64,000 nucleotides of DNA from Vicugna vicugna (taxonomy: Eukaryota). How positions within the stretch are numbered: position 1 is the stretch's first letter; every line of letters begins with the position of its first letter. Below, in pieces: positions 14,831 through 63,805 of the stretch. Made by a program: the position numbers and the translations under genes. The DNA lies in NCBI GenBank assembly GCA_013265495.1, contig MU057398.1, positions 1-64,000 of the forward strand, written 5' to 3'. The notes below the pieces were generated by a model. The model worked only from the letters and a program-made list of their open reading frames with translations, ran no database searches and was not told where the DNA came from.

Positions 14831-15219
14831 ACTACATTACCAAGAGAAGGAAACAGCCCAGGGAGGTCCTGCCATTTCTGCGACCCTCTGCCTCTGTCTC
14901 TGGCCCAAGGCAGGGCAGCAGATGCAAGAGGACAGAAGATATCAGGCAGAGAAGCCATGGCTGCTGCGGGGCTGAGAGCAAAACAGCAATACCAAAGGCT
15001 CAGCAGTGGAAGGTCTGCCTGGACCCCTCGTCAAACTCAAACATCCAGATAAGATGCCAGAAAGGTCACATCCCAGGAGTGAGGACCATGCCCAGGATAA
15101 TGGACCATTTCAGATCTGCCCAAACAAAAGCCAAAAACTCTGCTTTGACAAAAGGCAGAGGTAAGACAAGTTGGGGAGAGTGAGTCCTTTTAACTAAGGG
15201 GGGCTCTCAATCATTTTGT

Positions 15220-16260
15220 CCCTGCTGCTGCTGTCCTTCACATCACCCCTCTTTTAACCTCTCCAAGGACCAATGCGCAAATGTTCTGGGCAACTCTGCA
15301 AGCATGGTCCAGTGATCTGGATTGCCATGAGGTGCAGCAGATGGAGGGCTGCCCTAGGGTTGAGATGGCACTGAAGGGAGGAAGGGCAGGCCAGCTGGGC
15401 TGCTCCATGCCCCCAGCCGACCCCTGCCCTGGTGGCAGTGGGCCGGGTCACCTGTATACCTATTTGTGCTCCTGTGCCCCCAGGTCTGACTGACAAGGAG
15501 ACTGCCCAGGGTGGGGGCTCCAGTTCCAGGGCCGAGGCCTGACTCCTCCCAGAGGGGAGCTGCTTCAGGAGGGAAGGACACAGGGAATGGATGGAGAAGC
15601 AGCCTGGCCATATGGGAAAGGGTCCCCGAGGGGGCGGGAGGTGTACGAGCCTCTCTCTCCCCCTCCTTTGGGCGGCTGTCTGCCAACCACACCAGGCGAA
15701 TCCCCTGACTTAGCAGGAGAGCAGGGTGACTGGTGGCCAACAGGTAGAGTGGCTCAGGTGGCCTCTCGGAGGTCCTGGAAGGGGCAAGAGTGGGAGCAGG
15801 TCGGGGAGGAACCGAACCACACCCAGGTAGGGCCAAAGACCCCTGGTTCCTGGGGGTGGAGGGCAGGCCCCACAGACCTCAGGGCTCTGGGCTCTGACTG
15901 TGGGAAAGTTCCTGCTGATGCAGGTCTCTAGGTGCCCCCAAAGAGGGCCTGGAGGGAAGTGGGGAGGCCTCATCCTGCCTGCCCTGCAGGTGGTCACCCC
16001 GCTGACTCAAGGCCCCAGCAGATCTAGTGATGGAAACCGCCTTCTACCTCTGTAGGACATGCCTCTCAGAGCAGGGGCCAAGGACACATCCTGGGGTCTA
16101 TTTCTTTCATTGTTTCCCAACAAGGGGCCCCATGTCTGGTGCATTCCTCTCCAGGAACCAGGCATAGGGGCTGGGGCATTCAGTGGGGTTTGTTGCTGGC
16201 CTATTTCCTCACATCTGGGGTGGCTGTTCCGTTTGGTGGGGCCAGCCCCTCTGCCACCAT
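15220..16260 (+). repeat. Left arm of a 1,041-bp perfect inverted repeat
   Basis: Compared block by block, it is the exact reverse complement of 30511-31551 with no mismatch or indel. Mirrored ORF translations are identical. Confidence 0.98.
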
Positions 16261-16399
16261 TTGGGCACACAGAGAGGAAGGGATTAAAAGTCCATGCTCC
16301 AAGTTCCCACAGTCTTCCAAGGGAGAGAGGCAATGGAGGTCTTGTGGTCATCACCATGAAGGTCTAAAGAGGCTAGGCCATTGGGGCCTGTTAACTCTC

Positions 16400-17489
16400 A
16401 AAGCTTCCTTTGAGGGCAAAGACTTCCACTGAGGAGAAACTACTGGGAATAGAATACAAATAAAACAACACAGGAACAATAGGGGCAGAGAAAAGAGAAG
16501 ATCCAGATACAAATGAGGGAGGAGAACAAATTCAGATCACAGAAAGGTGACAAGTTTTAACAGTTCTCAAAGCCAACAGAAGAGGGCGTTCTTCATATTT
16601 GAGATTAGAAAGTTTGTCATTTATCTCGTACAGATTTGGGGTGAAAATGAGTAACAGGAAGAAATCAAAGGCAAATCTCACATAAAGTTATTAAAATAAA
16701 AGAGAGAATACAGAGCAGAATAACATCCCTCTAGATATTGAAAGCATCCTGGAAAAAAATACATGAAACAGATGAAACTACAATCATTTATTGTAAAGCA
16801 AGCTAAAGCCATTAAGAAAATGTTTCAAAACGTGAAGGAACAGTATATATCAGAGTTAGAAAGACTCAGAAATGAGATAATAGAAAAGAATTGGAAATAA
16901 AATATTTAAAAGATTTTTACCTTCAGAAATTAACACTAAATTAAAAAAAACTGAGAGTGAATAAATACAACATAGAATGCCTTAAGAAAAATAGAAGAAA
17001 ATATGAGAATTTGTTAAAGAAAGATAAATAAAGAGATAAAGAGAATTTGAAAGAAAATGACAAATATAGAAGGCAAGCAAAAAAATCTAATATACATATA
17101 ATAGGAGTCCCCAAAGATTAAAAATTACCAAAGCAAAGAAAAAGAACAAATACTAAAATATATAATTCAAAAAACAGTTCCTAGCAAAAAATAAGATTCA
17201 AAACTATGAATTCAAAGTGTACACCATGTACCCAGAAAAATCACCCCCAAACAAGCAAAACGAAAACATATTCTAGTAAAGTTTTTGGATTAAAGAAAGA
17301 AAATTTATTTGGATATCTAGGCAAAAAGAATAAGTATACAGTGGAAAGGAAATGAGACTCTGCTCAAATTTTTCAACAGCAGCACTTTCCACCAGAAGAA
17401 AATTTAAGATAATCATCAAGGGGAAAACATCTGAGCCAAGGATTTTATATCCAACCAAGCTCACTTTCAAGTGTAAATACAGCAAACTC
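16400..17489 (+). mobile_element. Ancient L1/HAL1 ORF1-like fragment
   Basis: A-rich, with ataggagtcccc (IGVP) and ccaaggattttatatccaaccaagctcactttc (PRILYP.KL.F) ORF1 motifs. Confidence 0.6.
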
Positions 17490-17525
17490 TCGGAGGCCAG
17501 ATCAAGATGGTGGAATAGAAGGATG

Positions 17526-17775
17526 TTTTAATTGGGAGTGGTTCCTCTGCTTCTTCACGTTACTTATGTTTCTCTGGCTCTATGAGTTTAGGAGAAACGG
17601 GTATCCACTGTGGTCTTGAAGGGCCGTTTTTATGTGGGAATGTCCGTGTAGACTGCGTAAGTCTAATGTTTTTGGTGTGAGGGCTGTTTTTATTATGGAT
17701 GCCTGCCACGCCTTTCTTCAGTGTGTGCTGGCCATTACTCCCTTGATGGGGGTGTGATTGGTTTTGTGGTGACCA
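17526..17775 (-). repeat. Inverted copy of L1 segment 19344-19593
   Basis: 17526-17710 is the exact reverse complement of 19409-19593 (185 bp). The remaining 65 bp has 5 mismatches. Confidence 0.95.
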
Positions 17776-18166
17776 CATCTCCTCCCACAAATACATCAAA
17801 AGTATATCTATACATGGAACAATTCTCACCTGCTGAATGCTGGCAGAAGATCTCATAACACCAGGATTGCAAGAAAGAGCACCACACAACCAGGTAGGAT
17901 GAAAGAAAAAAGGGGGGGTGGATTGGGAAGGGACCTGTGCCCTTGGAAGAAAGCTGTGAAGGAGGAAAGGTTTCCTCACCCTGGGAAGTCCCTCCATCAG
18001 CAAGGACATTAGCCAGGACAGAAAGGGAGCGTCAGAGGCTCAGCGGAGGGCGTAGCAACTGATCTGCAGCCGGCAGCTCGGGGGCAGGCCCGCCCGGGCT
18101 CGACACCGTCCTGCTGCTTCCCAAGACTGGGACCTGTGTCTGCTGGTGCCTTCAGGGGCTGAGTGC

Positions 18167-18667
18167 TGTGAAGGAAAAGTACTGCAAGCCATATATGTCA
18201 GTCAACAGAGAGTGCTGAAGCCATCAAGTCATCAGCGGCTGCCGCCATCCCCCAGTGGAGACCAGCCTGCAGCCCGGCCTCTGCAGCACTCACAATGGTG
18301 CCCTCTGAGGGGACTCAGAATAAGACAGGACAGGACACTGGCCCTAGCCAGCTAGGTGCTTGTCAAAGGAAGGAATTCAGTGAGCCCAAATGTTTGCTTC
18401 CTCCCATACATAGAAAAGCGCTAAATTCTTTAACTTGAGATGCCTGGTTTTCTTTAGTTAAAAAGTAAGCTTTTAATGCTCCTACTACCTGATCTCTGTT
18501 GTAAAGCTCCTGTATATCCTAGCCGTTCCCCTACCTCTTCGGAGCAGTCCCTCAGAGCCATGTGAGAGGGTGTCATCCCGGGCTCGAAGGGGTTCGAGTC
18601 CTCAGAAATGTCCACCAAATAAAACGTAACTCTCAACTTTTAGGCTGCGCATTTATTTCAGTCGACA
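18167..18667 (+). mobile_element. ERV (class I-like) solo LTR inserted in the L1 5' UTR
   Basis: TG...CA ends (tgtgaagg...gtcgaca), 4-bp TSD gtgc/gtgt, AATAAA at about 18618. L1 sequence rejoins across it. Confidence 0.85.
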
Positions 18668-20185
18668 GTGTTGAAACTCTGGCTTCGGAGAACAAACCCA
18701 GGGTGATGACTGGGGCTGGCTGTGCAGGGGAAGCCTGAAGGCGCTGGGGCGAGCTCCAGACCACAACCTGGGGTGTGCACAGGAAGGAGCCCGGTGCACC
18801 CTGGAAGCCCCAGTGCTAATGCACATGCATGAAGGGAGGGGGAAGGCCTGCTATAGCAGCTCTATTCTCGGCATGCTCACAGCCGGTGTGTCTCCAGCTG
18901 CAGGCTCCGCAAGGTGTGTGCACACGGAGTTTGGGCTGACTCAGTAGCTCCCACAGTGGGTCCAGTTGCACAACTACAGCAACCCCATTGCCCGGCCTCA
19001 GCGGCTCTGCACTAGTGGCTTTGTGAGCACAGCACTGAGGGATACCCAAGCCAATTGTCTCTATTCCCACAGTTGAGGCATGGCTAAGGGCAGTGCCAAA
19101 AACAGCACAATGAGTGACAGACAACATCACAAAGTGCATTTCCTGGTGGATATCTCCTGCAGAGGAGAAGTCAGTGGCTCATCTCCCAGCAGGAGCACTC
19201 CAGTCTCACCTACCTCACACTGCAGTTCAGAAGCAAATCCAGAGGTGTCTACTCTAACAACTGGGGAGCAGACCCTGCCCCCAACAGGGCTGTGACAACC
19301 ACAGAGCAAAGAAGAGGCCCTGCTCAACATCCAGTGCAGGCTCTGATCACCACAACACCAATCACATCCCCATCAAGGGAGTAATGGCCAGCACACACTG
19401 AGGAAAGACGTGGCAGGCATCCATAATAAAAACAGCCCTCACACCAAAAACATTAGACTTACGCAGTCTACACGGACATTCCCACATAAAAACGGCCCTT
19501 CAAGACCACAGTGGATACCCGTTTCTCCTAAACTCATAGAGCCAGAGAAACATAAGTAACGTGAAGAAGCAGAGGAACCACTCCCAATTAAAAGATAAAG
19601 AGAATTCCTGTGAAAGAACAAACTGTGAAACTGACATTTCCAGTTTACCAGATTCTGAGTTCAAAAAGAAGGTAATGAAAATACTGAAGAAATTAAGAAA
19701 GGCTATCCATAGTAATGCAGATTATCGTAAAAAGGAACTAGAAACTATTTTAAAAAAGAGCCAATTAAAATTAGAAAATTTATTTGCCAAGACACAAGCT
19801 GAACTAAAGGCAAAAATTAGCAAACTGGATAATGCAGAAGAACAAATAAGTGATCAGAAAGATAGAATAATGGAAATCACCCAATCAGAACAGCAGACAG
19901 AAAGACACATTTTAAAAAATGAAAGCAATATACAAGAACTATGGGATAATATGAAGCATCCCAATCTATGCATAATAGGGGTGCCAGAAGGAGAAGAAAG
20001 AGGAAAAGGGATCAAAAACATATTTGAAGAAATTATGGCTGAAAACTTCCCAATCCTAAAGAAGGAAACGGATATCCAGGTACAGGAAAGACAGAAGGTC
20101 CCAAACAAGATGAACCCAAACAGACCTACACCAAGATATATTGTAGTTAAAATGGCAAAATTTAAAGCTAAAAAGAGGATTCTAA

Positions 20186-20310
20186 ACACAACCCTTGACT
20201 TTAGCTCAGTGAGAACCATGTTGGACTTCTGACCTCCAGAACTGTAAAGCATTTGTGTTGTCTTACTGTATCTATGTCATTTGTTACAGAAGCAATAGAA
20301 AGCTAATATA
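20186..20310 (+). mobile_element. MLT1 3' fragment
   Basis: ttggacttctgacctccagaactgtaa..ttgttacagaagcaatagaaagctaata. Confidence 0.7.
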
Positions 20311-20769
20311 GAGTCCGTTTAGAGAAGTACATATTTATCTCCTATTTATCTCTAAATGAATTAGATTATCAAATGCCTGAGGGCAGAAACCAGGTCGGTC
20401 TTCCTGGTCTTTCCCTGGCATCCAGCACAGTGCCTTACACATTACTAATGTTTAATCCATTTCTAAGATTATTGTAAATAAGATGTGTGAAGAAGATTGC
20501 ATTAAAATAAAGTAACAGTAAGGTATCAGTGAGAAATATTCTATTTTCCTTAGATTTGTTTATTATTATTACTGTTATTATTATTACTATTATAAACTGC
20601 CTTGTGAAGTCTCTTATTGTATCATTGTTTAAATTTGATGACATGATTTAATTTCCTTTGTGTTCACCTTACATCCCCAACAGACTGATTACAACAGATT
20701 GATTACTGCAGGGCAGGAATTATTGCCCAGACTTCTCAGCACCCTAGCAGTATGTATGCATCTTGCTCA

Positions 20770-21185
20770 ATAGATTTCTAGTGCTGTTGTAACAAATTGC
20801 CACAAAGTAGGTGACTTAAACAACAGAAATATATCTTCCACAGTTTTGGAGACCAGACGTCCAAGATCAGAATATCAACAGGATTGATTCCTTCAAAGGG
20901 TTGGGAAGGAAGATTCTGTTCCAGGCCTCTTTCCTTCACTTGTGAATGACTGTCTTCTCTCTGTGTCTTCACGCTGTCTCCCCTCTGTGTGTGTCCATGG
21001 CTATGTCCCAATTTCACCTTTTTATAAGGGCACCAGTCATCCTGGATTAGGACCCACCCTGATGACCTCATATTGACTAATTACATCTGCAATGATCCTA
21101 TTTCCAAATAATGTCACATTCTGAGGTCCTGGGCATTAAGACTCCAACATATCTTCCAGAGGGAAATATAATTCAACCCACAACA
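20770..21185 (-). mobile_element. MLT1-type MaLR LTR
   Basis: gctgttgtaacaaattgccacaaa..ggattaggacccaccct..attcaacccacaaca. Confidence 0.85.
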
Positions 21186-21994
21186 TCCTCAAAACACCCT
21201 CTGATCGCTATCACCCCACATCCATAGTGTGGTGATATAATTATTGCCTTCCACATTGCAAACCAAGTTGAATTCCCAACCAATGCATTTCCTTTCTATG
21301 GACTTGGATCATGTTAAGGGAAAAAAAGAGGTCCTCACAAACCTCCTCCTTGCCACACCAGAGGGCAGGCATTGTGCAGGAGAATGACTGGCCAATGAAT
21401 GAATGAAGACTGTGGCTTTCAGCAGTAGTGACTGGACACCCAAGGTTGCTGGTGGGCTGGGATGTGAGCAGCTTACCAGAATGCTGTGCCGTGAGATGAA
21501 CAGCTGTGAGACCAGCACAAGGCCAGGCTACAAAGCAAGCGTGAGGAAGCAGAGGCCAGGGCCTTCTGGCCTGGGATGGGAAAGCTGGAGGCAGGAAGGT
21601 CATGCTTGGGAATGTGGAAGGTGACTGAGGGTTTTGGAGTAAAGAACCACTTGAGAACTGGATGAATTATATGGGCCCTCCTCTGGAAACAGGCACATAT
21701 TCACAGACTCACAGAAGGATGGGCATTCACAGGCAGGGCATCCACAGGCATCCTGGCCCCATTTGTGGCTGCAATGTGAGCTGACTCCCCCCAACACCAA
21801 ATAAGAACAAAACTGAACTGAAGAATGGAAGAGAAAGGAAGCTTTATGCTGCTCCCATGATGATGCATTTTCATTGTAACAGACACTGGGGGAAATCAGG
21901 ACAAAAACAATCAATGATTTGATTTATTTACAGAATTTTTATTTGAAAATTTAGGAGAGGCTTGTTTTTTGTTTTTAAAAAAGAAAAGCTAGCA

Positions 21995-22725
21995 AACGGT
22001 CAGGCAGCTCTTCAAAAGGTTAAACATAGAATTACCATACAATCCAGCAATTCCACTTCTGGATATCTACCCAAAAGGATCAAAATCAGGGTCTCAAAGA
22101 AATATTTGTGCATTCATGTTCATAGCAGCATTATTCACAATAACCAAAACATGGAAGGAACCCAAGTGTCCACTGATGGATGAATGGACAAAGAAAATAT
22201 GGTCTATCCAGACAAAGGAATGTTATTGCACCTTAAAAAGGAAGGAAGTTCTGACATCTGCTACAACATGGATGAAGCTTGAGGACTTTATGCCGAGTTC
22301 AGTAAGTCAGACACAAAAGAAGAGTGTATGATTTCATTTGTATGAGGTCCGTAGAGCAGTCAGATTCATGGAGACAGAAAGTAGAATGGTGTTTACCAGG
22401 GGCTGGGGGAGGAGGGACTGTGGAAGGGGGAGGGGGAGTTAGTGTTTAGTGGGGACAGAGTTTCACTTTTGCAAGGTGAAAAAGTTCTGGAGATTGGTTG
22501 TACAATCACATGAGTATACTTAACACTCCTGAACAGTACACTTAAAATGGTTAAGATATTCATGTAAAATTTATGTTACATGTATTTTACCACCATTAAA
22601 AATGAGTGTGTATATGTCCATGAATGACTGAAAAATTGTGCTGAACACTGGAATTTGACACAACACTGTAAAATGATTATGAATCAATAAAAAATGTAAA
22701 AAAATGTTTTAAAAAGAAAAAGAAA
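21995..22725 (+). mobile_element. L1 3' end (L1MA/MB-like) with an appended younger L1 tail
   Basis: MFIAALFTITKTWKEPKCP..DEW peptide, then a second tail tgaatgactgaaaaattgtgctgaacac..aataaaaaa. Confidence 0.85.
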
Positions 22726-23832
22726 ACCTAGCTAAGCATTTTAATTTCAGCATACTAACACTCCACATTACAAATAAGGACGAGCAATTTCAACCACGGG
22801 AATTTTAGAAACTCTGAAACTGCTGACAGCCAGTTAAAACCACCTTGTACTGACATTTCTGATCCACAACCCATCTGGGAGATGAGGCTTTCAATATCCA
22901 GCGCTGGCCTGCAGAAGATGCACAGGCTGTCTGAGCAGCACAATCAGCATCCTGAATTCAAAGGTCTAGGACAATGGGAAGGAGCCTCAAGAAATAGTCT
23001 GGCTACTGCTGTTTTATAAATAGTCACATCGCTGACCTGCTAGAAGTCACTTGGCAATTCCTGGAAGAAAAGTCTTTTCTTCTAATGTACCCAGAATGCT
23101 TAGCCTGAGCATCCTGGCCTGATGTGGCCAGCCCCTGGCTATAGTGTGTGCACTGGAAACCTAGGGACTGGCTCACACACCTCTCAACTCCTACCCCTAG
23201 CTTTGTGTGTGCCTGCGTGGACCCCTCCCTCCCACCTCTTTAATTGGCAGATCACTAACAAAGTCCTCTTCTCTGTCCTCTGTGCTGAATAAAAACATAC
23301 ATAAACAAGTAGATGGCACAAACATTTTTGTCCTTTGGATTGATTCATTCTTGATTGGAAAACAATCTGGGTTAAGATCAAGAGGAATTTGTGATTTCTT
23401 TCCCACCCTCTGAAAACACAGGAATGTAAACTGAGTTATCCCAGTCGACCACAAAGCTGAGTTCTGGTGTTTATCTAACTGAAAGCCTATTTAATTTTAG
23501 CACAGAGAGGCATTCATTCATTTGACAAGCACTTTCAGAGCACCTCTGACATGCCAATGACTAGGCTGGGAACTGGGGTTCCAGCACACCCCAGCACTGC
23601 ACGCACAAACCAGCGCCCAGTGGAGGAGATGTGGAAACACGCACTTGGAAATCAGAGGATGCACGCTACAAGATCAAAGATGATGGAAGCCAGAGGACTC
23701 AGCAGATAGGGACGGCTTCCAGAGGGAACTCTTTAAGCAGAAAAAGGCATAATGAGTCACCCAGGCCAAGGGGCGGGAATAAGAGGCAAAGAGAAGCACT
23801 GACAGGCAAAAAGGAGCATAGTGAGTCAAAAG

Positions 23833-24510
23833 TGGGGATGGCAAACTGCTTCTGTAAAGGGCCGGAGGGTAAATATTTTCAATTTTGCGGGCTCAACTCT
23901 GCTGGAAATGAATGGGCGTGGCTGTGTGCTGATACAGCCCTCCTTATGACACACATTTGAATTGCATATAATTTTCACATGTCATGGAGATATTTTTCCT
24001 TTGATGTTTTTAAAATTCAATCCACTTTTTTTTTCTATTAAAATATGGTCAGTTTGCAATGTTGTGTCAATTTCTGGTGCACAGCATAATGTTTCAGTCA
24101 CAGATATACATACATATATTCCTTTTCATATTTTTTATTATAGGTTACTACAAGATATTGGATATAGTTCCTTGTGCTATACAGTAGAAACTTGTTATTT
24201 ATCTAGTTTATATAGAAGTTAGTATCTACAAATCTTGAGTTCCCAATTTATCCCTTCCCAACCGCTTTCCCCCCGGTAACCATAAGTTTGTTTTCTATGT
24301 CTGTGAGTCTGTTTCTGTTTTGTAAATAAGTTCATTGTGTCTTTTTAGATTCCACATATAAGTGATATCATCTGGTATTTTTCTTTCTCTTTCTGGCTTG
24401 CTTCACTTAGAATGACGATCTCTCAACCATTTTAAAATGTTAAAAACCATTCTTTACTTGCCAGTCATACAAAAATAGATGATGGGTTGGATTTGGCTGA
24501 GCCCTGGTCT
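23833..24510. mobile_element. MER58-type hAT MITE interrupted by an antisense L1 3' tail (about 24026-24422)
   Basis: gggatggcaaactgcttctgtaaagggcc start. The MER sequence resumes at tcaaccattttaaaatgttaaaaaccattc, with an imperfect TSD tcaatccac / tcaaccat. Confidence 0.75.
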
Positions 24511-27500
24511 GAGATGCTGAAATTGTTCCAGAAGGCTAGAATACCGTGGGGGAGTGCTGAGCATGAGGCTGGAGTGAGAAAGTGACTTTGTTTAAATGCC
24601 ACTCACTCCGTTTATGCCCAGTCCTCAAGGTTAGCAGTCTACAAACCAGGTGACTGGCCCCAGGTGGAAGGAGGCAAGAGGACATCTCCTATTGTTCTTA
24701 CATCACTTTTAAGTGTCTAGTTTGTGGCTATTTCCTAGTGTGGCACATACTACATTACAGTAGTAACATGTATGTGACTTAGAAATAGCTAGACACACAC
24801 ATATTTCGGAGGGGAGCAGCACTTGAGTCCTCCCGGGACACCAAGAGGGCCTTTGGAGTGCACAGTCTCTGCCAGCCACAAACGGATGAAAAGTTGGGTC
24901 CTTGCTTCACATACACAGTGCTCTGGATATATGTGTACAAATCCACCCTGGGGAAGCCTTCCAGAGTGCCCACACAAGACGAGTTCCCCTTCATGCACCT
25001 CCATTGCCCTGAGAACCTCTCCATTTCATGGCTGTAACTGTAAATCACACTGTGTGGATATTTGAATAATGTCTCTAAGCCTCATTAGCCTGGAGACCAC
25101 GTGAGGCAAGGGACCGTGTGAGTTTGTGTTCACTGAAGTTTCCTCAGAGCCTAAAGCTGCCTGGCACACAGTGGGAGCTCAGTAGTAAACCCTTGCTGAT
25201 ATATGAAGAACAACGTCACCCATCAGTTTTAGGTCCTCCACAGTACTGAGCACCAGAATTCACACTCAGTAAAGTAGATACTCGTGAAGTTGAATTTCTT
25301 AAATCACATATATTCTAAAATGACTCCAGTGCAAAGAACCTCAAGAAGTAATGCCTACAAAGGGAAATTATGGTGACACAGCTCATGGAAGGAGGAAGAG
25401 GACATAGGTTGAATTCTTGGCTCTACCAAAGACCTGCTTTGTGTTTGGCAAGTCACCCAACCTGTTTTGGTTTCTTTATCTGAAAAATGGTCATACTGGG
25501 TTCTTGCGAGGTGTTGATGAAATAAGCTACACAGAGTTTTCCGCTCATAGCCTGGCCCATCATGATCCCTTGATGCTTGCATCCTACTGCACAATTAGAT
25601 CATGGAGTTCAGCCCCCTCCTGGCCCATGTCACCTGCATGGGCCTTACCCCACGCCACCTCACATACTTAGTAGCCATGAATCTCTCATCCAATGACTCA
25701 TCTATGTTTCTCCTTAGCACACACGAATATTTATTTACCTATTCTTTCTCAGCCCAGGTCATTCAATCCAGTGCTAAATCCCACTTCCACACCCGTGGCC
25801 CTGCACACCTGATTACCGAGAATGGCTTCTGGTGACCTGGCTACTAAACACATCACTTACAGATTTCTAATTCCAAAGAATTTGAATATGATGAAACACT
25901 AAAAATATGCTCTAAAATTATACTCTGAAGCTTGGAGTCTTGGTCAATTCTAAACCTGTCTGGTGCTCTCCAAGGCCATCTTTCAGGGCCTTCCCCATAT
26001 ATGCACTGCTCCATGACCTTGGAAATGACAGCTTTGCTAGAGAACACCACCAGTGCCCACCCGCCAGAGTTGCAAACGTTGTTTCTCAGCCTCACCGTGC
26101 CCATGAGACTCAAATGCAGATTTCAGGACCCCACCCCTGCGAGTCTGGGATCTGGGCTGTGAAACACTGGCATCTGCATTTTCATATGCCACGTGAGGAT
26201 GTGTGTGCACATGGTGCCCGCTGACTCGCTCTGCTGGAGTCCAGCCCTGTGAACAGCGTCTAGATGCTAGAAAGGTGCACGGAGCTCACTGCGCCTACAA
26301 CATCCTGAGTCGCATTGCTCAGAGCCTCTAAACTCATCTTTTCACCCAAGTCACCACGGGCAGCCCGGCCTACCTCGCCAGCTACGCAAGCCAGAGGAGC
26401 CACTGGAAGAGGCACCCAGAGGTGGAGGCGGAGGCGGGACCGGGGCGGGGTGAGAGCAGGGCTGGGCTCTCAGTGACACCTCTAGGAAAACCGCAGGGCT
26501 TCTTCCCACAATAACGCTGCAGGAGCGCCCCCTCTGGAAGGTGATACTGGGCACAAGTGGAAGGACAATCCCCGCCATGAAGAAATGGACAAAATGGAGA
26601 GAAATGCAAGAAACGGAGAGGGTGGCAACCAATGGGCGGGAGAGACTGTCCAGTAATCTCACTGCCTCGCTCCACCCCAGGAGCACATCTCATGATCTCC
26701 CTTCTCCAGATGAGGAAACTGAGAAGGGAAGGGACTGATGTCTACTGGGATGAAATGGGTAATCGCCAAAAAGCAAGTCAATTGAGCAAGGGAACATGCT
26801 TGAGTGAGCCCAGTTCCATACCAAGGGCCGTCATATGGAGAAGGGCAGGCAAGAGATGGCGCTCTAGTTGGTCAGCTGAGGGCTGCATCTGAGAACCTGC
26901 CCAAGTGCTGTGTGCACACTGCCCCATCCAAGCCTCCCTGCATGCTGATCAGAGAGATATATTTATTACAGTCACTTCAGAGTTGCAGAAACTGGGGTTT
27001 CAAAAGGTTGAGTATTGCTTAGGGTCACAAGGCTGATAAGCTGTGGGACCAGGCTTAGAATCTGGTCACACTATCCCCTGTTCTCTTAACCCAATGCTGG
27101 GCTGCCGTGGTCCTAGAACTTTCCTCCCTGTCAGAACCACTTGAAAAACTGGTTAAAATTCAGAGTGCTGGGCTCCACTCCTAAAGTATCTGGAGTAGGG
27201 TAGGGCCTGAGAATTTGCATTTCTGAAAGTTCCCAGGGGTTGCTGATGCTGTGGTTCCCAGGTCTCTACGTCATCTCACAGGCCCCCAGCACTGGCCCAG
27301 CAGTACCCTCAACACTGGAGATACAGTCCTGCCTGCATGCTTTGGGGCATGCCCTTCACTCAGTCTGGAATGTTCCCTTCCCAGGTCACCCTAGGAAAAT
27401 TCTCCAGGTCCACCCATAAGAGATGGCTTTCTCTGATCTGTTCTCTGCCTGCGACAATCTGTTCCCACGTTCTGTTGCTACTTCTTGTAACTGATCTCAT

Positions 27501-27887
27501 GGTTTTATACGATACTTATGTTTGTCTTTATCTGTCCCTCTGGGCTGGCTTCTTACTTTTCCAAGGGAATGACCTTGTCCTATATATCTTTTTATGCCCA
27601 ACTGCAAGTACAGGCTTGCAAAAATGCTTGTTCACAGATTCATGTCTCCTTGCTGAGTAACTTTCAGGTCCCTCCATAGCCCTGGCCAAACCACTGTTTC
27701 ATTCTTATCTTTTGGCATTCCTTTGAGTTTCTGGTGCTGCTCCAGATTGTTTTCCATGTAGTAACAGCAGCAGACAGTGGAGTCACGAGCATCCACAAAC
27801 ATAAAATGTATGATTAAGGCTAACAGTGACGAGGATCAGTGTAATTAATAAATACATCCCCAGGACCCAAGAAGTATGGTGTAACAC

Positions 27888-28412
27888 TACGGTTCTCAAA
27901 GCAGAATCCGGGGAACGCTAGGGGTCCTTGAGACCCTTTAAGTCAGAATCCATAAGATGAAATCTCTTTTCACAATGATATTAAGATGTTTTTGCATTTT
28001 GTACTGTTTCTCAAAGGTAAAGTGGACTTTTCCAGAAGCAATCTAAGTGTGATATCATGGCAGACTGAAGTCAGAAACAGACACGATTACCCAGCTATCT
28101 CCTACTAATCCAAACATCAGAGAGTTGCAAAAATGTAAAACAATACCACTCTTCTCACTAAATTTCATTTGTTTTCTATAGATGTTTTGCATAAAATATG
28201 TTATTCATGTTAATCTGTCATGGTTTTATGACTGTCATCTTTGAATGAATTAATAATTTTTTAATTTCTCATCTTCAATTTTCATACTTAATTTTCAATT
28301 TTAATATTTAATAAATAGTGATATGTATAACCCACATAAACAAGAGATCTTCAGGGTCCCTAAATAAATTTTAAGAGCGTAAAGGGGTCCTGGGACCAAA
28401 AAGTCTAAAGAC
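27888..28412. mobile_element. hAT-Charlie non-autonomous element
   Basis: ggttctcaaa..ggggtccttgagaccctt start and ggggtcctgggaccaaaaagt end. Confidence 0.6.
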
Positions 28413-28743
28413 TTGCTTAATTTGATGCTGTGCATTATAATGAAGAAAAAAAATCTCTCATGGTATATTACATTATGGAAAAAAGGAGGCTTTACTTTTT
28501 TAACAATGACTTTGTGTTTTTTTCCCTTTGATGATCCTGCAGATACCACAGAATGCAAATTTAGGAGGGTAGGCAAAGATTTTTGCAATCCATGAAAAAC
28601 AGCAGATATTTGCACTAACAGTTTCTCTGCCTTAATTTTTAAAATTCTCCTTACTTGCTTTTCTATGGGAAGGGTCTATAAATGGAATACAAATACGGAG
28701 CTATAGATTCAGCTTGAAAATTGCCTGAGAGAAATAAACGGCT

Positions 28744-29160
28744 GTATTAGTTTGCTAGAGCTGCTGTAACAAAGTACCACCAACGGAGTAGCTTAAACGA
28801 AATTGATGAGCTCAGTCTGAAGGCCAGAATTCTGAGATCAGGGTGTCAGCAGGGCCACACTCCCTCTGAAATTTCTAGGGAAGGATCTGCTCCAGGCTTC
28901 TCTCCCAACTTCTGATATTTTCTTGGCTTGTGGCAGCACCACTCCAATATTCACAGTGTTCTCCCTGTGCTCATGTGTGTTACATTTTTTCCCTTTTTAT
29001 AAGGAAGCACATTCTATCGGATTAGGGCCCACCCTAATCATTTCATCACAACTCGTTGATCTCCATGAACACCCTGTCTCCAAAATCAAGTCACTTTCTG
29101 AAGCACTGGGGGTTAGGATTCCAACACATCCTTTTAGAGGTGCACAATTCAACCCATAAC
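28744..29160 (-). mobile_element. MLT1-type MaLR LTR
   Basis: tgtattagtttgctagagctgctgtaacaaagtaccac...caattcaacccataac. Confidence 0.85.
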
Positions 29161-30510
29161 GATGGACAATGATACAAGTTAGAGAAATTACAAAGGAAAA
29201 AGGTATGAGTTAAAATCATGGTGCTCAAATCAAAGAAGCCAATTCTATATTTTGGTCCATGATAGTAAATCCAGAGCTGAGGAAGTTTCCAGGCCAAAAC
29301 CTTAACTTTCTTTCTTATATTGTTGCTATTTGTCACCACATACATGGAACTGTTACTTAGGGAACTGAATCTTCTGCTGCTACATCTCTTGCCAGGCCTC
29401 ACAGAGGCCAGGAGTGTCTGCTGGGCTCGGGGAGTGAGTTCAATTTCTTTTAAGTCAGTCTCGCTCAGATGGTGCTAGTGGGGAGACTGATCGGGACCTG
29501 CGAGTTTTAGAACCAATTCCAGTATCCTTGCAGCAAAAGTCTGGGAGAAGAGAAGGGTACAGAGGAAGAGAAAGAAGAAAAGTGGAGTCCTCAGAAAGTC
29601 TAAAATCTTCTAAAACTTATAGTTTTTTTCACTAAAATGGAGGTGTTTAAGAGGAACCAGAGGAATGGTTACAATTACACAGTCCAACACAAAAATGGAC
29701 CTTGAGGCTATTTAAAGATGCAGCTTGCGGTGATGAGAAACGTTGCTAGGAAAGAAAAAAGTTGAGTTCGTGAATTTAGGGAAGGAGATCTTGTAAAAAG
29801 AGACAAATGAAGGCAAAAACACCGCCAAATTGTTGTAGTGAATTGAGCGAGGAAAACAGTGGGAAGTTGACCTAAGGGAGCGGGGAGACAAGAAGGTTGA
29901 GCCCATCAGCCACACCCATGGGAAGGAGCTGCACTTACATGATCCAGCTTCTTGTGACCCATTGCTACAAATTTAGAAGCTTAAAATAATGCCCACTGAT
30001 TATGCACACTTGCTCTGGGTCAGGCGTCCAGGCACAGCCTAGCTTCCAAGGCTGCAACGGGAGTGGCAGCTGGCTGGGGTCTTCCAAATTGCTTTCCAGT
30101 CAAATCTCGACTTGTAATTGCAGCCGCTCCCTTTGCAACAACTGGGGCTGGCCACCTCCTTCCTAATGCAGACCACCACTTATGTCTTCCAGCCTTTAGC
30201 ACTGGCTGGGCCTTTAAGACCAAGCTCAGAACATGCCTCCTCCAGGGAGCCCCTGTGGATTCCCCACAGACTGAGTGTCATGTCATCAAAGTTGATCCCT
30301 CTCTGGCCCATGCACACATCTCTTGCCAAGCACACTCAGCCCCAGGTGCTCTGTGCTGCCTGAACAAAGGACGTTGATAACTACAAAGCCCTAAGGAGGT
30401 GCCCAGCATTTAGCAAGCACTCCATGATACCAGCTGCTGTCCCTCCACCACGACCTATATCAGGGTGCCTCTCTCCTCTAACACTGGCCCCTTTTTCTCT
30501 GTGTGCCTAG

Positions 30511-31551
30511 ATGGTGGCAGAGGGGCTGGCCCCACCAAACGGAACAGCCACCCCAGATGTGAGGAAATAGGCCAGCAACAAACCCCACTGAATGCCCCAG
30601 CCCCTATGCCTGGTTCCTGGAGAGGAATGCACCAGACATGGGGCCCCTTGTTGGGAAACAATGAAAGAAATAGACCCCAGGATGTGTCCTTGGCCCCTGC
30701 TCTGAGAGGCATGTCCTACAGAGGTAGAAGGCGGTTTCCATCACTAGATCTGCTGGGGCCTTGAGTCAGCGGGGTGACCACCTGCAGGGCAGGCAGGATG
30801 AGGCCTCCCCACTTCCCTCCAGGCCCTCTTTGGGGGCACCTAGAGACCTGCATCAGCAGGAACTTTCCCACAGTCAGAGCCCAGAGCCCTGAGGTCTGTG
30901 GGGCCTGCCCTCCACCCCCAGGAACCAGGGGTCTTTGGCCCTACCTGGGTGTGGTTCGGTTCCTCCCCGACCTGCTCCCACTCTTGCCCCTTCCAGGACC
31001 TCCGAGAGGCCACCTGAGCCACTCTACCTGTTGGCCACCAGTCACCCTGCTCTCCTGCTAAGTCAGGGGATTCGCCTGGTGTGGTTGGCAGACAGCCGCC
31101 CAAAGGAGGGGGAGAGAGAGGCTCGTACACCTCCCGCCCCCTCGGGGACCCTTTCCCATATGGCCAGGCTGCTTCTCCATCCATTCCCTGTGTCCTTCCC
31201 TCCTGAAGCAGCTCCCCTCTGGGAGGAGTCAGGCCTCGGCCCTGGAACTGGAGCCCCCACCCTGGGCAGTCTCCTTGTCAGTCAGACCTGGGGGCACAGG
31301 AGCACAAATAGGTATACAGGTGACCCGGCCCACTGCCACCAGGGCAGGGGTCGGCTGGGGGCATGGAGCAGCCCAGCTGGCCTGCCCTTCCTCCCTTCAG
31401 TGCCATCTCAACCCTAGGGCAGCCCTCCATCTGCTGCACCTCATGGCAATCCAGATCACTGGACCATGCTTGCAGAGTTGCCCAGAACATTTGCGCATTG
31501 GTCCTTGGAGAGGTTAAAAGAGGGGTGATGTGAAGGACAGCAGCAGCAGGG
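30511..31551 (-). repeat. Right arm of the 1,041-bp perfect inverted repeat
   Basis: Exact reverse complement of 15220-16260. Confidence 0.98.
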
Positions 31552-31911
31552 CCAGATTCATTCAGAGTCAAGAGTCTTCTAAGTGTTTGCTCCAGGTCCT
31601 TTTTTTATATGTTACCATGTAATGATTTCACGAGAAAGCAATCCAGAGTAACCTCAATGTAGTCTTCCCATCCTTTGTGCTGTGGACCAGGGGAGTTCGA
31701 TGTGGCTTTACCCCTGTACCCTGGAATATTGATCACGGCTGATGTTCCTTAGAGCTGCACAGATGACGTGAGGATGCACACATAGAAGTGCTCTTTGGTG
31801 TGTGTAGGGAGAAGCCATGATGGCCAGTTCCACAATCCGCTTCTGTGTGTGCTGCTGTGGGCTGACTCAGGAGCTGTAGTGGCCTCCAATGTAAAGAAAT
31901 CACTTGTTTTT

Positions 31912-39495: not shown

Positions 39496-39501
39496 TTTAT
39501 T
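39496..39501 (-). terminator. Polyadenylation signal AATAAA of the PNMA6-like gene
   Basis: tttatt on the + strand. It lies in an AT-rich island within GC-rich DNA about 1.3 kb after the stop codon. Confidence 0.7.
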
Positions 39502-40770
39502 AAAGAGAAACATTGACTGAAACTACCGAAAAGAGGGAATGACCACACAGGCAGGAACTTCTAACGGCCACTAAAGCCCACAGATCTCAGCCCCCTCCTC
39601 CTCCCAGGGTCCCTCACCAGGTGTCTCAGCTGCCCCCCACCGTGCTGCGGCCCTCCCCACATAGTCTCCCTTCCTGAGGGCCCCACGGTCAGCCTCTGGC
39701 CAGGACGGTGGACCCCAGCAATGACCGCTGCCCCCAGGGCACCCCTCCCCCTCTGGCCCACATGCTGGGGCCTGGCCCTGCCCTCTGGCCCCCACAGGAC
39801 AGTCCAGGACACTGCAGAACACGGCGGGGAACGCTCCCCCAAGCCCAGGACAAGGGGTCACGAGGAACAGCGATGGCAGATCACAGCACGGTCCCCAAGG
39901 ACCCTCCGCAGCCCCCAACCTTCCCCGGCCCAGTTCTTCCTTCCCGAGGCCACCAGGTGGGCGTCGTCCATCTGTCCATCCCGCCGTCTCCTGGGACCGG
40001 GCTGGGGTCTCCGGGCTGGGCTGGGGGTACTGCTCAGAGAAGAACACACACACATCTCCACAGGAACAAGCAGCGTTTGGCCTAAATCTACTCCGACAAA
40101 GCGGACGTGGCGCTCACGACACTGGGCCAGAGCGAGCAGAGCCTTGGTGCCCTGAGCTCAGGGCACGTGGCCGGGCCCAGAGGTGGCGGCCCGGGTAGGA
40201 GGGACACCCGGCCTGGGTCCACGGGCACCTCAGGGCTCTGCACGTAAACGGGCGCTGGTGTGGGGGGTGGTGAGGAGATCACTATGGGGCCACAGAGACA
40301 CAGGCTTCCTATGGGCTTCCTAGTACAGGGAGCAGCCTGCCCCAGGGGACGGTGACTAGGGGCCCCTCTCGGAGGCCCAGGCACCTTGACATGGCCCCTG
40401 ACATCTCCCAGGGCAGTGTGGGGGCAGACGTCTTCAGGTGGCCCTCACCGAGGCCGGGGCTGGGCACTCAGGGATCCTCCCGGGCCGGCTGCCCCAGTTG
40501 GCAGGGCTTGGGGCTGAGGCTGGTGTGGTGTTGCCATGGTGGGGGAGGCGCACCTCTCCCCGCCCCATTTGGTGTCTAACATGGTCATCGTGGTCACTTG
40601 GAAGGACTCATGGTGGTGGGTGGGGTCTCTTGCAGGTAATAGGGGGCCCAGGGAGTTGGTTTGGGCTGGGCTGGCCCTTCCCTCCACCCTGCTCCCCACC
40701 TGGGGCGAGGTGGCTGCCTGGCCTGGCCTCTACCTGCCTCCAGGCCAGGGGGGCCCTGGGCCTGCTGAGC

Positions 40771-44000
<3,230 letters not shown>

Positions 44001-53849: not shown

Positions 53850-54480
53850 CTCCACCCAAGCATCTGGCCCGCGTGCGCGGCTCTCCGGGGTCTGGCCGGA
53901 CCCTCTTCACCAGAGCTCAGCCCCGCCCCCGCCCCGCCTCACCCCCTCTCCAAGCCAATCGAGGCCGGCGGGCTGGGCGGGACCGGAGCCGGGGCGGGGC
54001 CTCGCTCTCCCACTACCCACGGCGGCGCCCGCGGCTCCGGAAACGCGCCGCGGGGCTGCTGGGCTCTGCCGGGCGCTGGCGGGTCCGTGGCGCTTCCTGC
54101 CACGCCGGGCCTGGCCGCGCCAGCGCTGCTCCGCTGACGGCCTCGCGTCGGCCGCCGCCGGGCCAGGGTGAGCGTGCGGGCCACGAGAGGATTGCGCGGG
54201 GCGCGCGAGGGTGTGCGGGGCCGGAGTGATCGTTTGGGCCACGGGAAGATGTGCAGGGGGTGCAGCCCAGGAAAGTGTGCAGGGCCCGGGTGAGAGTTCC
54301 AGAGTGCGGTAGGGGTGGGGGGCAGGGGCGACCAAGCCTTACTGGTGGAGTGTCTCCGTTCCCGCGGGAAGCTACTTGGCCCTGGGGCCAGCTGAAGCGG
54401 GGAACGGGTAGATGGCGGGTATGAGGCCGAAGGCCTTCCCGCGGCGGGCGTGGGGCGACGGTGGGGGGCGGGAATCACTA
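53850..54480 (+). promoter_or_regulatory. ZNF275: CpG-island promoter and non-coding first exon of a ZNF275-like gene
   Basis: Dense CpG, tandem GC boxes (ccccgccccgccccgcc, ggggcgggg), CCAAT at about 53955, ETS-like ccggaa. Donor CAGG|GTGAGC after 54167. Confidence 0.75.
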
Positions 54481-56324
54481 GACGTGCTCAGGCCAATGCT
54501 GCTTTTAGGATAGCCCTGGGGAATGGGAACCGATCGGTATGGGAAGTAGAAGACCCTCCCACCCCAAGCGCAATGGAGGCCGGGGGGACTGGGCGTTGAG
54601 GGGGGGTGTTAAAGGGCTTTTCCCCGGTCTGGGGGAGGGGCTGAGCAGCAGTCTGGGACGCGGGATGGGTGAATAGGGGACGGTTCCTGCTAGTTGGAGG
54701 AGGAGTCCTTTCCTTTTGAGTCAGGGTCGAGCCTCAGCTTGGCGGGGAGGTTGGGGCGGGTAGCCTAGGGCCCAAGTGCTGTGAAGGAGGGGGAGGGGCA
54801 GCCCTTGCTAATTGAAGATGAGCTCAAGGCCCTGGGTGAACAGGGCTATTTTTCTGTCGCCCTTCTGGGGCCACCATCTCCCGCTCCAGTGGGCCCCCCC
54901 CCCACTTAAACTCCTTTGCTGCCTCCTCTAGTCTATATTTGGGTGATTAATTATATGTCTTTCTCCATCCTCCCCACACACACACTCGTCTGCCGCCCAA
55001 AGCCCATGGTCCCTTTCAAACCCCCCCCAAATCCTGGCCCTCTTCCCGGAGGTCCCACCCTGTTCCAACTGACACCCTCCAGCCAGCGTTGGCCCAGCCA
55101 GGGCTGCCACCCCTCCAGACTCCTTGGTCAGTGAAATATTTCCTCTTCAACCTCAGACCTGACATTTTTCTTTTACCAAAGGCTTTCAGAGGGGATTGCT
55201 AGAACAGCACCCACTCTGGGTACTAATGCCGCCTCACCCCATCCCCCAACCTCCCTCCCCAACTGGGCCTTTAAGTAAAAGCTGCTTGCACAATGCCTGG
55301 CACAGTCCAATCCGTGTCCCCAAAACGGCTCAGGATCTATATTTAGAATCCTATTGAACAGTGATTTCCAACATTCTTTGGTTAAGAGACCCCTTAGAAA
55401 ATCACCCAAAAGTGTGAATTCTCTTCTGAGAAACCTGACAGCACAGAGATTAGGATCCCATTCAGGAGGCTCATGGGCCAGAATCCTGTCTACCAAGTGC
55501 TGGTTGAAAATGCAGATTTCTTGGCCCCACCCACACCTGCTACTCTGCCCCTTGAGTTCTTAGCAAACCCCAAGCCAGGGTTCTAATCCACTGATTCAGC
55601 CCTAGCCCTAACCTGCCCAGGCTCTGCAACTGGCCCGGGGCCCCTTGGGATTTGCACAGTATTCCCACCCCCATTTAGAATCTTTCATATCCAGGACAGT
55701 GTAACTTAAAGGAAGCTATACTTGCAATTTATTTTGATTTTCAATGAGATACCATGCATCTTCTTGGGGAAATGGGAACATAAACCTTCCCTCAATTAAG
55801 TACAACAAACACTAAAAATCCCCTTCTGGTCTACCTTCTGGTTTTTTATAGAAGGGAAAGAAAATGGAAACCTAAACAGAGAGGGACAGGTGCCCAGGCA
55901 TCGTGAAAGAGGAAAACTGGGGAAGACGGAGACAGATGCCTCCTACCCACGCACACAGAAAAAGACACACACAGACGCAAACATCCTGAGAGAAGCAGAC
56001 ATTCCTGGGGAAACACCCTCTCTTTTGGCCCTTTAGGATTCACTTCTAGTAGCAATGCATTTGTACAGCACAGGGTGGGCCCAAATCAGGCCTTCGCAGC
56101 CACATCCTGGTGGGACGTGTTGGGAGCCCCTGAAGGCTAAGCCCAGCGCTGCCTGACTCAGGTGGATTGGGGTCTCAGCAGTGTGTGGGTGTGTTCAGTC
56201 TCACAACCCAAAACGACGTTCCCAGAAGGTGTACCCAAGTCTGCTTCTGTGCCCCCAGATTATTTCAGTCCAACAAGTGGGACCTTACCTACCTGGTTAA
56301 TCACTCAGATTGTTCTGAGATGCG

Positions 56325-56349
56325 ATGCCATCCTGTGTGTCTCTTTTGG
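56325..56349 (+). CDS. ZNF275: First coding exon of a ZNF275-like C2H2 zinc-finger gene (MPSCVSLL-G, phase 1). The remaining exons appear to lie beyond the window.
   Basis: Acceptor ttctgtgcccccag (56258) and donor G|GTAAGC (56350). The peptide matches my recollection of the human ZNF275 N-terminus (..PCVSLLG). It lies about 2 kb downstream of the CpG island. Confidence 0.6.
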
Positions 56350-62335: not shown

Positions 62336-63805
62336 TGGGCGTCTCTGTCTATCCCTTTTAATATAACATCTTACTTTATGTAAAAGTCTTTCTGGAGTAT
62401 CTGGGTTTTATACTCCTTGAGCTGGTGTAAAAATGCTTCCTTTTCGTTTAACTGTGAAACAATTTGACCTGACATCATAACAGAAACGGTATTCCTGTGT
62501 CTGTGAACTTACTGAGTGGGAGGCTTGTGATGCATGCACACCAGTGGTGGGATCTGACAGAAGAAGTTCACTTGCATGTGTGGTTCTTTTATTTCACAAC
62601 TTACTGTTTGAAGATCTTTTTTTTTTTTGAGGCTTCTTTTTCCAGCAATTTTGTTCAACTTTTCATTTTGTTAGCTATGTTACAGAAATGTTCTTGCCTG
62701 CAGCCGTCTTGTTGTCACCTGGCGAGTTGTTTCAGTGGGGTGGGGAGGGGCTCCTGCTCTTTCTTACCTCTCTCCTCTCCAGTGGCCCAATCCAGTTTTT
62801 TATGGTCCCTACAAAGTTGAAAAGGCTCTCTCACTTCCTAGTTATTTATTCCAATGTTCTTTTGGGGGATGCTTCCTTTCTGTGCAGTATGAGCATTGAT
62901 GTATTGGAGGCCTACTGCTTGGAGGCCTGTGGCCGACCTGCCTCTGGGAGCCAGTCCCCCTGCTATTGGCTCTAGGTCTATGTTTGTCCTCAGTGTGTGC
63001 CTGGGCTAACATTCATTTGTCCTGTCCAGGTTCTTTCTGGCCTGCCTGTATTAGTTCTTTGCCAGCCCACTTTCCCCACTGTTTAGGATCTGTTTTTTCA
63101 GGCATACCCGTGCTCTGGCTTGTCACTCAGCCTATGTGCAAGGGAAGGTGCTACAAGATCTAAAACCAGGGAAAGGGAAATTGCCAGTTTCACCCCAGGG
63201 GACCCAGAGGCAGGGCTGCTAGCACTCACAGCTCTTTTCACTTTCCTTAGCTCTGCCTGTCCCCCAGGGTCTTGCCCTTTCCTGAGATGGGTTCCCAGGA
63301 ACCCAAGTCCTGGCAGGCCCTCTTGAGATGCTGGAAGCCCAGGTGAGCTGTGCTTCCCTCTGCCTGGCTTGGGAATCTGTCACTGCTCCCTGATTCTGGC
63401 CTCAGCCTCTGACTCTTGCCCCAGCATGACATACAACAGGGCCTGAACCCCAGCTGCTGCCTGCCCTCTCTCTCTCTGCTTTTGTCCCCAGAGTCTGCCA
63501 AGGAAGGGATGCCTGCTGGCTTGTAATTCCCATTGTAGTGATGGGGGAGCTGAGTGTCAATCCAGGAAAGTGATTGAACTGAGGTCCCTTGGGAGGACAG
63601 TGGGATCCAGGGCCACAGCCCAGGTCTCCTGGCACACGGTCAGGTTCTCTTTCCAGGACTTCTTGAGGCTTGCAGTGATACGTCCATGTTAGCAATGCAC
63701 ACCCACTCTCCAGACTCTCACCTCTTGTCCCTGGGGTTACTGGCACTACCCTTGCCTCATTCTCAAATGGATGGAAGGACAGATTATCCATGGGAATTCT
63801 TTCAG

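Follow-up and report, generated by a model that had tools for sequence, protein, structure and literature searches.

A 1,041-bp sequence occurs twice, in inverted orientation and without a single difference, in the 64-kb window (the whole stretch of DNA that was analysed), and the pair is probably an old duplication whose arms have been kept identical by arm-to-arm conversion, a reading that we draw from the sequence. The repeat would be a small, gene-free instance of a known process in which one arm overwrites the other; the repeat itself is apparently new, as no published description of it was found in the literature. Its parts, in order along the window, are:

15202..15219, plus strand: outer fringe of the left arm, 12/18 identical to 31552-31569
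15220..16260, plus strand: left arm, perfect core; putative derived copy, non-coding, 61.6% GC, CpG observed/expected 0.15
16261..16282, plus strand: inner fringe of the left arm, 18/22 identical to 30489-30510; polarised with homologue P0106
16283..30488, no strand: spacer interior, potentially invertible, with several old interspersed repeats
30489..30510, minus strand: inner fringe of the right arm, where 2 of the 3 derived changes that could be polarised are located
30511..31551, minus strand: right arm, perfect core; putative ancestral site, reverse-complementary to the left arm throughout
31552..31569, minus strand: outer fringe of the right arm, partner of 15202-15219

Direct comparison of 15220-16260 with the reverse complement of 30511-31551 gave 1041/1041 identical bases and no indels, with the perfect run ending exactly at these limits and the arms enclosing a spacer of 14,250 bp; recomputation thus reproduced the exact inverted repeat described in the initial annotation. 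With 0 differences in 1041 bases, the 95% upper bound on core divergence is 0.29%, and even at only 1% divergence the chance of a perfect core is 3e-5. Core and fringes together span about 1,080 bp per arm. The 64-kb window contains no third copy of the arm, and a sensitive self-BLAST of 9000-36000 revealed no further homology in the flanks, apart from hits read as interspersed repeats. It is highly unlikely that assembly or polishing made near-identical arms exactly identical, or created the second copy: each of the four junctions is unique, the fringes align in register yet remain diverged, and the assembly of the 64-kb window contains no N bases and resolves the 63-bp and 18-bp arrays. Such an artefact could mask a few differences, but could not generate diverged fringes. 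Moreover, a 253-bp inverted pair nested in an L1 element of the spacer (17523-17775 versus 19344-19596, 97.6% identical) retains its 6 differences. In general, read pairs anchored in the flanks would span most of a 1-kb arm. The element concerned is:

17500..20190, plus strand: 5' part of an L1 element inside the spacer, limits read by eye

Conversion is favoured because fringes diverged by about 21% adjoin a core diverged by less than 0.3%. The inner-fringe match of 18/22 given in the initial annotation was recovered unchanged (18/21 without the boundary mismatch, binomial p 3e-8), while the outer match of 13/20, although above-chance homology does extend there, had counted the core base 15220 and is corrected to 12/18 (12/17 without the boundary mismatch, p 2e-4; 12/20 in a fixed 20-base window, p 0.002). 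Among 199,988 random anti-diagonal starts, 2 matched the inner score and 155 the outer score, and when the partner was slid along the sequence these scores were reached in 0/4000 and 2/4000 positions, respectively. Both fringes exceed chance. The 40 bases beyond each fringe are at background (11/40 and 13/40). Combined fringe divergence is 8/38, about 21% (95% interval 10-37%); the age estimate draws on 38-40 fringe bases, with outer limits picked by score. No zone of intermediate identity separates core from fringe, and divergence jumps sharply from 0% to about 21%.

The history of the two copies can be read from homologues elsewhere. Twelve public sequences have spurious ORFs that cover the arm with many frameshifts (3-9 against each homologue), and a search among 1.84 billion representatives gave three clusters for the arm. 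Their translations are 58-72% identical to the arm, over peptide windows picked with the alignments already in view, and simulation puts their DNA divergence at about 15-22%, of the same order as that of the fringes. All six homologues that cross an arm edge continue into the flanks of the right copy, and none of the 12 has a left-type flank; because of the former, we infer that the left copy is the duplicate and the right copy the ancestral site. The flanks concerned are:

30473..30488, plus strand: ancestral inner flank, matched by P0106 and absent beside the left arm
31571..31601, plus strand: ancestral outer flank, matched by P0107, P0110, P0111, P0112 and P0113 and absent beside the left arm

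In the inner flank, P0106 differs from the right copy at 1 of 15 bases and from the left at 5, and 0 of 2000 random places fitted as well. The five homologues at the outer edge are all related to one another, and P0107 and P0111 are weak taken alone (61/2000 random places as good). P0106 also reads through the inner fringe in register, which allowed 3 of its 4 differences to be polarised: the right copy acquired 2 of these changes and the left copy 1, all from G/C to A/T, a polarisation given by three sites and one distant sequence. Over 24 bases the left fringe is nearer to P0106 than the right fringe is (1 versus 2 minimal differences). The left fringe would thus hold older bases than its source, and the left copy would therefore not have been made recently.

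This last comparison bears directly on a very unlikely alternative, in which replication template switching produced the inverted duplication within less than about 1 million years and the fringes are prior partial matches that guided the switches, with no conversion involved. Perfect identity and an abrupt edge are what such an event would leave, and template switching near X low-copy repeats has been described (PMC8327919). The missing left-type flank among the homologues fits as well, but has little bearing on camelids because the homologues come from distant species. Such an origin, however, would require stretches of about 20 bases at both ends to match by chance and in exact register, at the frequencies of 2 and 155 in 199,988 given above, and it leaves the left fringe fitting the homologue better than its supposed template.

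The neighbourhood of the repeat, and one further patch within the spacer, include the following features:

26300..26700, no strand: GC-box/CCAAT patch in the spacer, promoter-like by sequence, CpG observed/expected 0.3-0.6
39496..39501, minus strand: candidate poly(A) signal for the PNMA6F-like gene; the right arm lies 7.9 kb away
40800..43211, minus strand: PNMA6F-like ORF of 803 aa, basis for assigning the locus to a camelid and to the X
53900..56349, plus strand: CpG-island promoter and first exons of a presumably ZNF275-like gene, so named from a short exon-2 peptide; CpG observed/expected 0.76 at 53900-54800

The poly(A) signal is the only minus-strand AATAAA between 38500 and 40800, and its distance agrees with the earlier placement of the repeat about 8 kb downstream of a PNMA6 poly(A) site. 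The spacer patch was considered as a copy of the promoter at 54 kb and rejected, as higher scores were reached by 4 of the 76 real GC-rich windows compared. The PNMA6F-like neighbour suggests that the locus is X-linked; PNMA6E/F are assigned to the X (PMC10516033).

Under the favoured conversion model, some 1.08 kb of ancestral non-coding DNA at 30489-31569 would have been copied once, inverted, to 15202-16282, 14.2 kb away, in an event that is probably over 20 million years old. Since the copies lie close together and presumably on the X, which males carry without a pairing partner, breaks in either arm could have been repaired repeatedly from the other, so that new mutations in the 1,041-bp core were either removed or passed to the second arm. 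At each end, the final 20 bases would have remained outside the conversion tracts, being too near the end of homology, and would have drifted apart; conversion halts where pairing fails (PMC3924837). A crossover in place of conversion would invert the spacer, which is invertible in principle. The same model, as put forward in the initial annotation, gains indirect support from the identical core between diverged fringes, from fringe mutations on both copies and from the ancestral context of the right copy. A single, long and recent conversion tract that homogenised long-diverged copies, in place of steady conversion, is extremely unlikely, even though the step at the core edge is sharp and one genome cannot count events: conversion requires a few hundred bases of high similarity (PMC3924837), which copies 20% apart would not offer, mammalian tracts rarely exceed 1 kb (PMC3961182), and such a tract would have had to leave about 20 bases unconverted at each end.

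Judged by its sequence, the arm is ancestral non-coding DNA, neither gene nor transposon, because the homologous ORFs over it are spurious and rich in frameshifts. Pfam searches of 56 ORFs (52 of the 116 listed in the window and 4 others) returned only L1 ORF1 above the cut-off, namely a fragment in the spacer at 19540-20232 (Transposase_22, E 1.5e-15), the sole protein family there; the 15 ORFs overlapping an arm had no Pfam family. The 145-codon plus-strand ORF in the arm gave 0 hits from 38 candidates, and four window ORFs had no exact match in the sequence collection searched. Metagenome scans for host DNA returned 0 matches to a 20-base arm pattern and 72 to a PNMA6F pattern, 0 of which were confirmed. 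There was no Rfam hit in the arms, and no structured RNA or tRNA in the arms or spacer. A transposable element pair was rejected on low copy number, the lack of element proteins and the lack of a target-site duplication of at least 8 bases around the left copy (one 7-mer was present); the absence of a third copy in the window and of element protein, together with just three homologue clusters, upholds the initial view that the arms are no recognised transposable element.

Arm GC, at 61.6%, exceeds that of 576 other windows of 1-34 kb (at most 55.9%), and is equally high in two of the three homologue groups at comparable sites (0.656 vs 0.656; 0.686 vs 0.708). On the window's branch we counted 8 changes from A/T to G/C against 7 from G/C to A/T (12:7 and 8:4 with other filters). 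Reported equilibrium GC is 0.40 for flanking and 0.61 for palindrome sequence (PMC8981503); the A/T-to-G/C changes exceed expectation at 0.40 (one-sided p 0.0008-0.04) and only marginally at 0.50 (p 0.01-0.17), and are compatible with 0.61. Neither a camelid-specific GC gain (the window's branch did not differ from others, Fisher p 0.27-1.0) nor a GC dome toward the arm centre (rise not significant, p 0.12) was retained.

As an addition to any of these histories, the arm might be a regulatory element for PNMA6F or ZNF275, with selection keeping two matching copies, an idea to which we give little credence. Both arms are free of recognisable repeat insertions, of which the spacer has several, the converted core retains 96% of the duplicated length, and the arm contains single AP-1-like and ARE-like motifs. 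Single short motifs are, however, expected by chance, the arm is CpG-depleted (observed/expected 0.15), and the homologues differ by 15-22% with many indels, like neutral DNA.

The FLNA-EMD inverted repeat was reportedly described by Caceres et al. in 2007. Catalogued in humans as X palindrome P24 and HsInv0389 (PMC8327919, PMC3961182), it likewise comprises near-identical, inverted, non-coding repeats, X linkage being assigned here by homology; its arms are also GC-rich relative to their flanks, a property that the present arm has in common with two of its three homologue groups, and its spacer is invertible by non-allelic recombination, as here in principle. It differs in arm length (11.3 kb versus 1.04 kb) and in holding two genes in its spacer, where we found none, and both of its orientations and the repeats of 15 other mammals are documented, whereas the present repeat is known from one assembly. 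Human P23 presumably ends just proximal of PNMA6F. P22 (PNMA6A/B) and P23 (PWWP4 arms, MAGEA1 spacer; end at hg38 153,293,919) would share the chromosomal neighbourhood of the repeat (PMC8327919), but their arms, of 8.4 and 43 kb, bear genes; their inversions measure 1.2 kb and 106 kb (PMC10150506). No PWWP or MAGE family hit occurred among the 56 scanned ORFs, and the entries of the human inversion table in PMC10150506 that carry the searched prefixes include none with its start or end within CHM13 151.53-151.69 Mb.

HsInv0393 (4.7-kb repeats, 14.1 kb, X) and HsInv0347 (1.6-kb THE1C repeats, 7.1 kb) resemble the present repeat in spacer size and in identical or near-identical arms (PMC3961182), and by analogy the same mechanism would be expected; their arms, however, are longer and include portions of genes or copies of transposons, and their orientation polymorphism is proven. 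Identical patches in old duplicates are likewise known from the mosaic concerted evolution of BMP8A/B, DDX19A/B and TUBG1/2, there with stable borders (PMC2720389), and from PNMA6E/F, for which concerted evolution has been suggested (PMC10516033); these patches lie within genes, where selection may hold them, whereas no gene was found in the present arms. Surveys of X palindromes begin at 8-kb arms (PMC8327919). Against the definition used in that study, the repeat has over 99% identity (100%) at less than 500 kb (14,250 bp), but its 1,041-bp core is shorter than the required arms of over 8 kb, and it lacks the protein-coding, often testis-biased arm genes of 21 of 26 human cases.

Long-lived conversion has been documented mostly inside genes. 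If the long-lived reading holds, proximity on the X alone could keep a 1-kb, apparently gene-free pair from diverging over tens of millions of years. The process is a familiar one, no affected gene was found, and the present value of the case is modest. It is quite unlikely that the fullest version is correct, in which a 1-kb repeat, free of genes and transposons, has stayed 100% identical for 40-80 million years, its borders moving by only 20 bases, with a 14-kb spacer and its promoter-like patch still flipping in living camelids, and with other mammalian orders sharing it; in that case no smaller long-lived relative of the FLNA-EMD repeat would be known, and the pair would serve as a clean, neutral measure of how near to the end of homology conversion can come.

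Beyond conversion, crossovers between the arms might flip the 14.25-kb spacer repeatedly, with both orientations segregating in living animals, which we regard as doubtful. Among primate X palindromes whose spacers can be oriented, about half have spacers that differ between species (PMC8327919), recurrence is enriched among X inversions (bioRxiv 2021.12.20.472354), and a human inversion with 1.6-kb repeats, HsInv0347, exists (PMC3961182); an inversion here may be invisible to short-read genotyping of camelids. However, no flip is visible in the single assembly analysed, because both ancestral flanks adjoin the right copy, and of the recurrent inversion proposed in the initial annotation it shows no trace. 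Recurrence rises with the ratio of repeat to inversion size (PMC7263195), which is only about 0.07 here, well below the 0.24 of FLNA-EMD and the 0.33 of HsInv0393 on the human X (PMC3961182).

The inverted repeat proposed in the initial annotation was borne out: positions 15220-16260 (left arm) and 30511-31551 (right arm) match as reverse complements at every base (1041 of 1041), the perfect run beginning and ending exactly at these coordinates, and they enclose a spacer of 14,250 bp. In register with this core, similarity continued into an inner fringe on the spacer side (18 matches over 22 bases) and an outer fringe on the far side (12 matches over 18 bases), past which arm-to-arm matching was at background (11/40 and 13/40). 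Both fringes exceed chance, the inner more clearly than the outer: among 199,988 random starts, 2 reached the inner score and 155 the outer score, and among 4000 slid partners 0 and 2 did so. When 9000-36000 was compared with itself at high sensitivity, no further flank homology emerged except matches that we read as interspersed repeats. The repeat is real. An assembly or polishing artefact would have to account for four unique junctions, diverged fringes and gap-free sequence, and a nested 253-bp inverted pair retains 6 differences; on this evidence, polishing could have removed no more than a few arm-to-arm differences. Metagenome scans returned no confirmed match to the locus.

To characterize the arm, we combined family and homology searches. 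No third copy was found within the window, the arm gave no Rfam or tRNA match, and no Pfam family was detected in 15 arm-overlapping ORFs (56 ORFs scanned, 52 from a list of 116); the arms thus appear gene-free across the ORFs scanned. One arm ORF matched 3 clusters among 1.84 billion representatives, and a profile search yielded 8 matches which, together with cluster members, gave 12 translated database sequences (P0105-P0116); a plus-strand arm ORF search returned no match. Each of the 12 aligned to the arm at 58-72% residue identity with 3 to 9 frameshifts, some of which the aligner may have inserted spuriously, although tblastn likewise gave these sequences in two or three frames. By simulation, they differ from the arm by ~15-22% at the DNA level; visual inspection sorts them into three groups, and we infer that they come from mammals. 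The frameshifts and DNA difference, the few matches, and the lack of a Pfam family, Rfam match or third copy indicate that the arm is low-copy, ancestral non-coding DNA, evolving about neutrally and translated by chance in other assemblies, and so neither gene nor transposon, in agreement with the earlier view that the arms are not a transposable element.

Six of the 12 homologues cross an arm edge and all six match the flanks of the right copy, suggesting that the left copy is the duplicate and the right copy occupies the ancestral site. P0106 extends into 30473-30488, where it differs at 1 of 15 bases, compared with 5 against the left flank. Random places fitted as well in 0 of 2000 cases, and in 147 of 2000 when residues 1-6 of P0106 were taken without a frameshift. 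P0110, P0112 and P0113 extend into 31571-31597 (1, 6 and 1 of 2000 random places as good), and P0107 and P0111 follow the right outer flank weakly (61 of 2000), these five forming one related group and the test windows having been chosen after the alignments were viewed. No target-site duplication of at least 8 bases surrounds the left copy, compatible with either a templated insertion or an inversion with staggered breaks that subsequently reverted.

Divergence was 8 of 38 bases in the fringes (21%, 95% interval 10-37%, boundary mismatches excluded) versus 0 of 1041 in the core (upper bound 0.29%). Assuming 1.5-3e-9 neutral substitutions per site and year, the fringes date to at least 17-34 million years (point estimate 41-82) and the core to less than 0.5-1 million years. 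P0106 polarised 3 of the 4 inner-fringe differences; two of these changes arose on the right copy and one on the left, each toward A/T. Had the left arm been copied recently from the right, it would bear the right arm's derived bases, which the left fringe lacks. Although thin, at three sites and one sequence, this is the strongest argument for an old duplication. With diverged fringes around an unbroken core and changes on both copies, the probable reading is that non-coding DNA was duplicated in inverted orientation long ago and, as first proposed, has been kept identical by conversion.

According to PMC3924837, conversion depends on close similarity across a few hundred bases and ends where pairing fails; it has been described between the arms of X palindromes in mouse and primates (bioRxiv 800185; PMC8981503). 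Once the arms had diverged to the extent seen in the fringes, conversion could scarcely have resumed, so core identity was most likely maintained by it continuously rather than regained, the 20 bases at each end lying beyond its reach. Across 1-34 kb, no kilobase is richer in GC than the arm (61.6% versus at most 55.9% in 576 windows), whose value is near the equilibrium of 60.9% given for primate palindrome arms in PMC8981503. Changes on the window branch toward versus away from G/C numbered 8:7, 12:7 or 8:4 under three filters, exceeding an equilibrium of 0.40 (p 0.0008-0.04) and marginally one of 0.50 (p 0.01-0.17). Two of the three homologue groups are as GC-rich as the arm, branches were alike (Fisher p 0.27-1.0), and a GC peak at the arm centre was not significant (p 0.12). 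The GC evidence for conversion is mixed.

An arm-to-arm crossover would move the inner flank of the ancestral site next to the left arm. Because both ancestral flanks lie on the right arm, no flip is visible in this assembly, provided that the homologues derive from single-copy loci. The contigs carrying them, up to 3.3-5.1 kb, exceed the arm, compatible with one copy, or longer arms, in the source organisms. Large primate palindrome spacers often invert (PMC8327919), and recurrence is reported to rise with the repeat-to-inversion ratio (PMC7263195), which is ~0.07 here versus 0.23-0.33 for the human inversions HsInv0347, HsInv0389 and HsInv0393 (PMC3961182). The recurrent inversion initially suggested would make spacer orientation polymorphic in present-day animals, which we consider unlikely. 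The arms would work in the manner of the FLNA-EMD repeat but are without genes, and fall below the 8-kb arm-size criterion for X palindromes. No published description of the repeat was found in the largely open-access literature searched, so a catalogue entry may have been missed.

The neighbourhood is marked by a coding feature:

40800-43211, minus strand, PNMA6F-like ORF, nearest relatives the dromedary PNMA6F-like proteins

A gene beginning at ~54 kb appears to be ZNF275-like, and human PNMA6F adjoins the human X palindromes P22 and P23. A 138-codon ORF (63402-63818, minus strand) has no Pfam match; a few of its residues resemble the MAGEA N-terminus, probably by chance. The PNMA6F-like ORF is identical to its dromedary relatives over the first 100 columns and 91% identical overall to P0102, a figure that includes the tail running through a 63-bp repeat; this points to a camelid other than the dromedary. 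The 63-bp array (7.8 copies, 40939-41429) is absent from the dromedary proteins, and a different frame encodes the C-terminus, giving 803 aa versus 684. Rfam RF01093 (Ma3 gene frameshift signal; 40766-40828, minus strand, 42.6 bits) spans the stop codon. Dromedary P0001 and P0102, both PNMA6F-like, are near-identical and are each recorded on a contig of 114,202,744 bases, consistent with the PNMA6E-PNMA6F conversion suggested in PMC10516033, which places both genes on the X. P22 and P23 lie in the same neighbourhood (PMC8327919, Tables S1 and S2), and both are reported to invert in human (PMC10150506).

Within the spacer, 26300-26700 shows a slight elevation of CpG together with GC-box and CCAAT motifs, and no gene was found behind this patch. 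An L1 element ends within ORF1 near 20190, and its 5' region contains a segment recognised by eye as solitary-LTR-like (~18190-18670). The nested inverted pair (17523-17775 versus 19344-19596) is formed by a 253-bp inverted copy of a portion of the L1 5' region, just past the element start, matching perfectly over 185 bp and mismatched at 5 positions within the inner 65 bp; a run this long arose in 1285 of 200,000 random placements, and the pair is possibly the core-and-fringe pattern in miniature.
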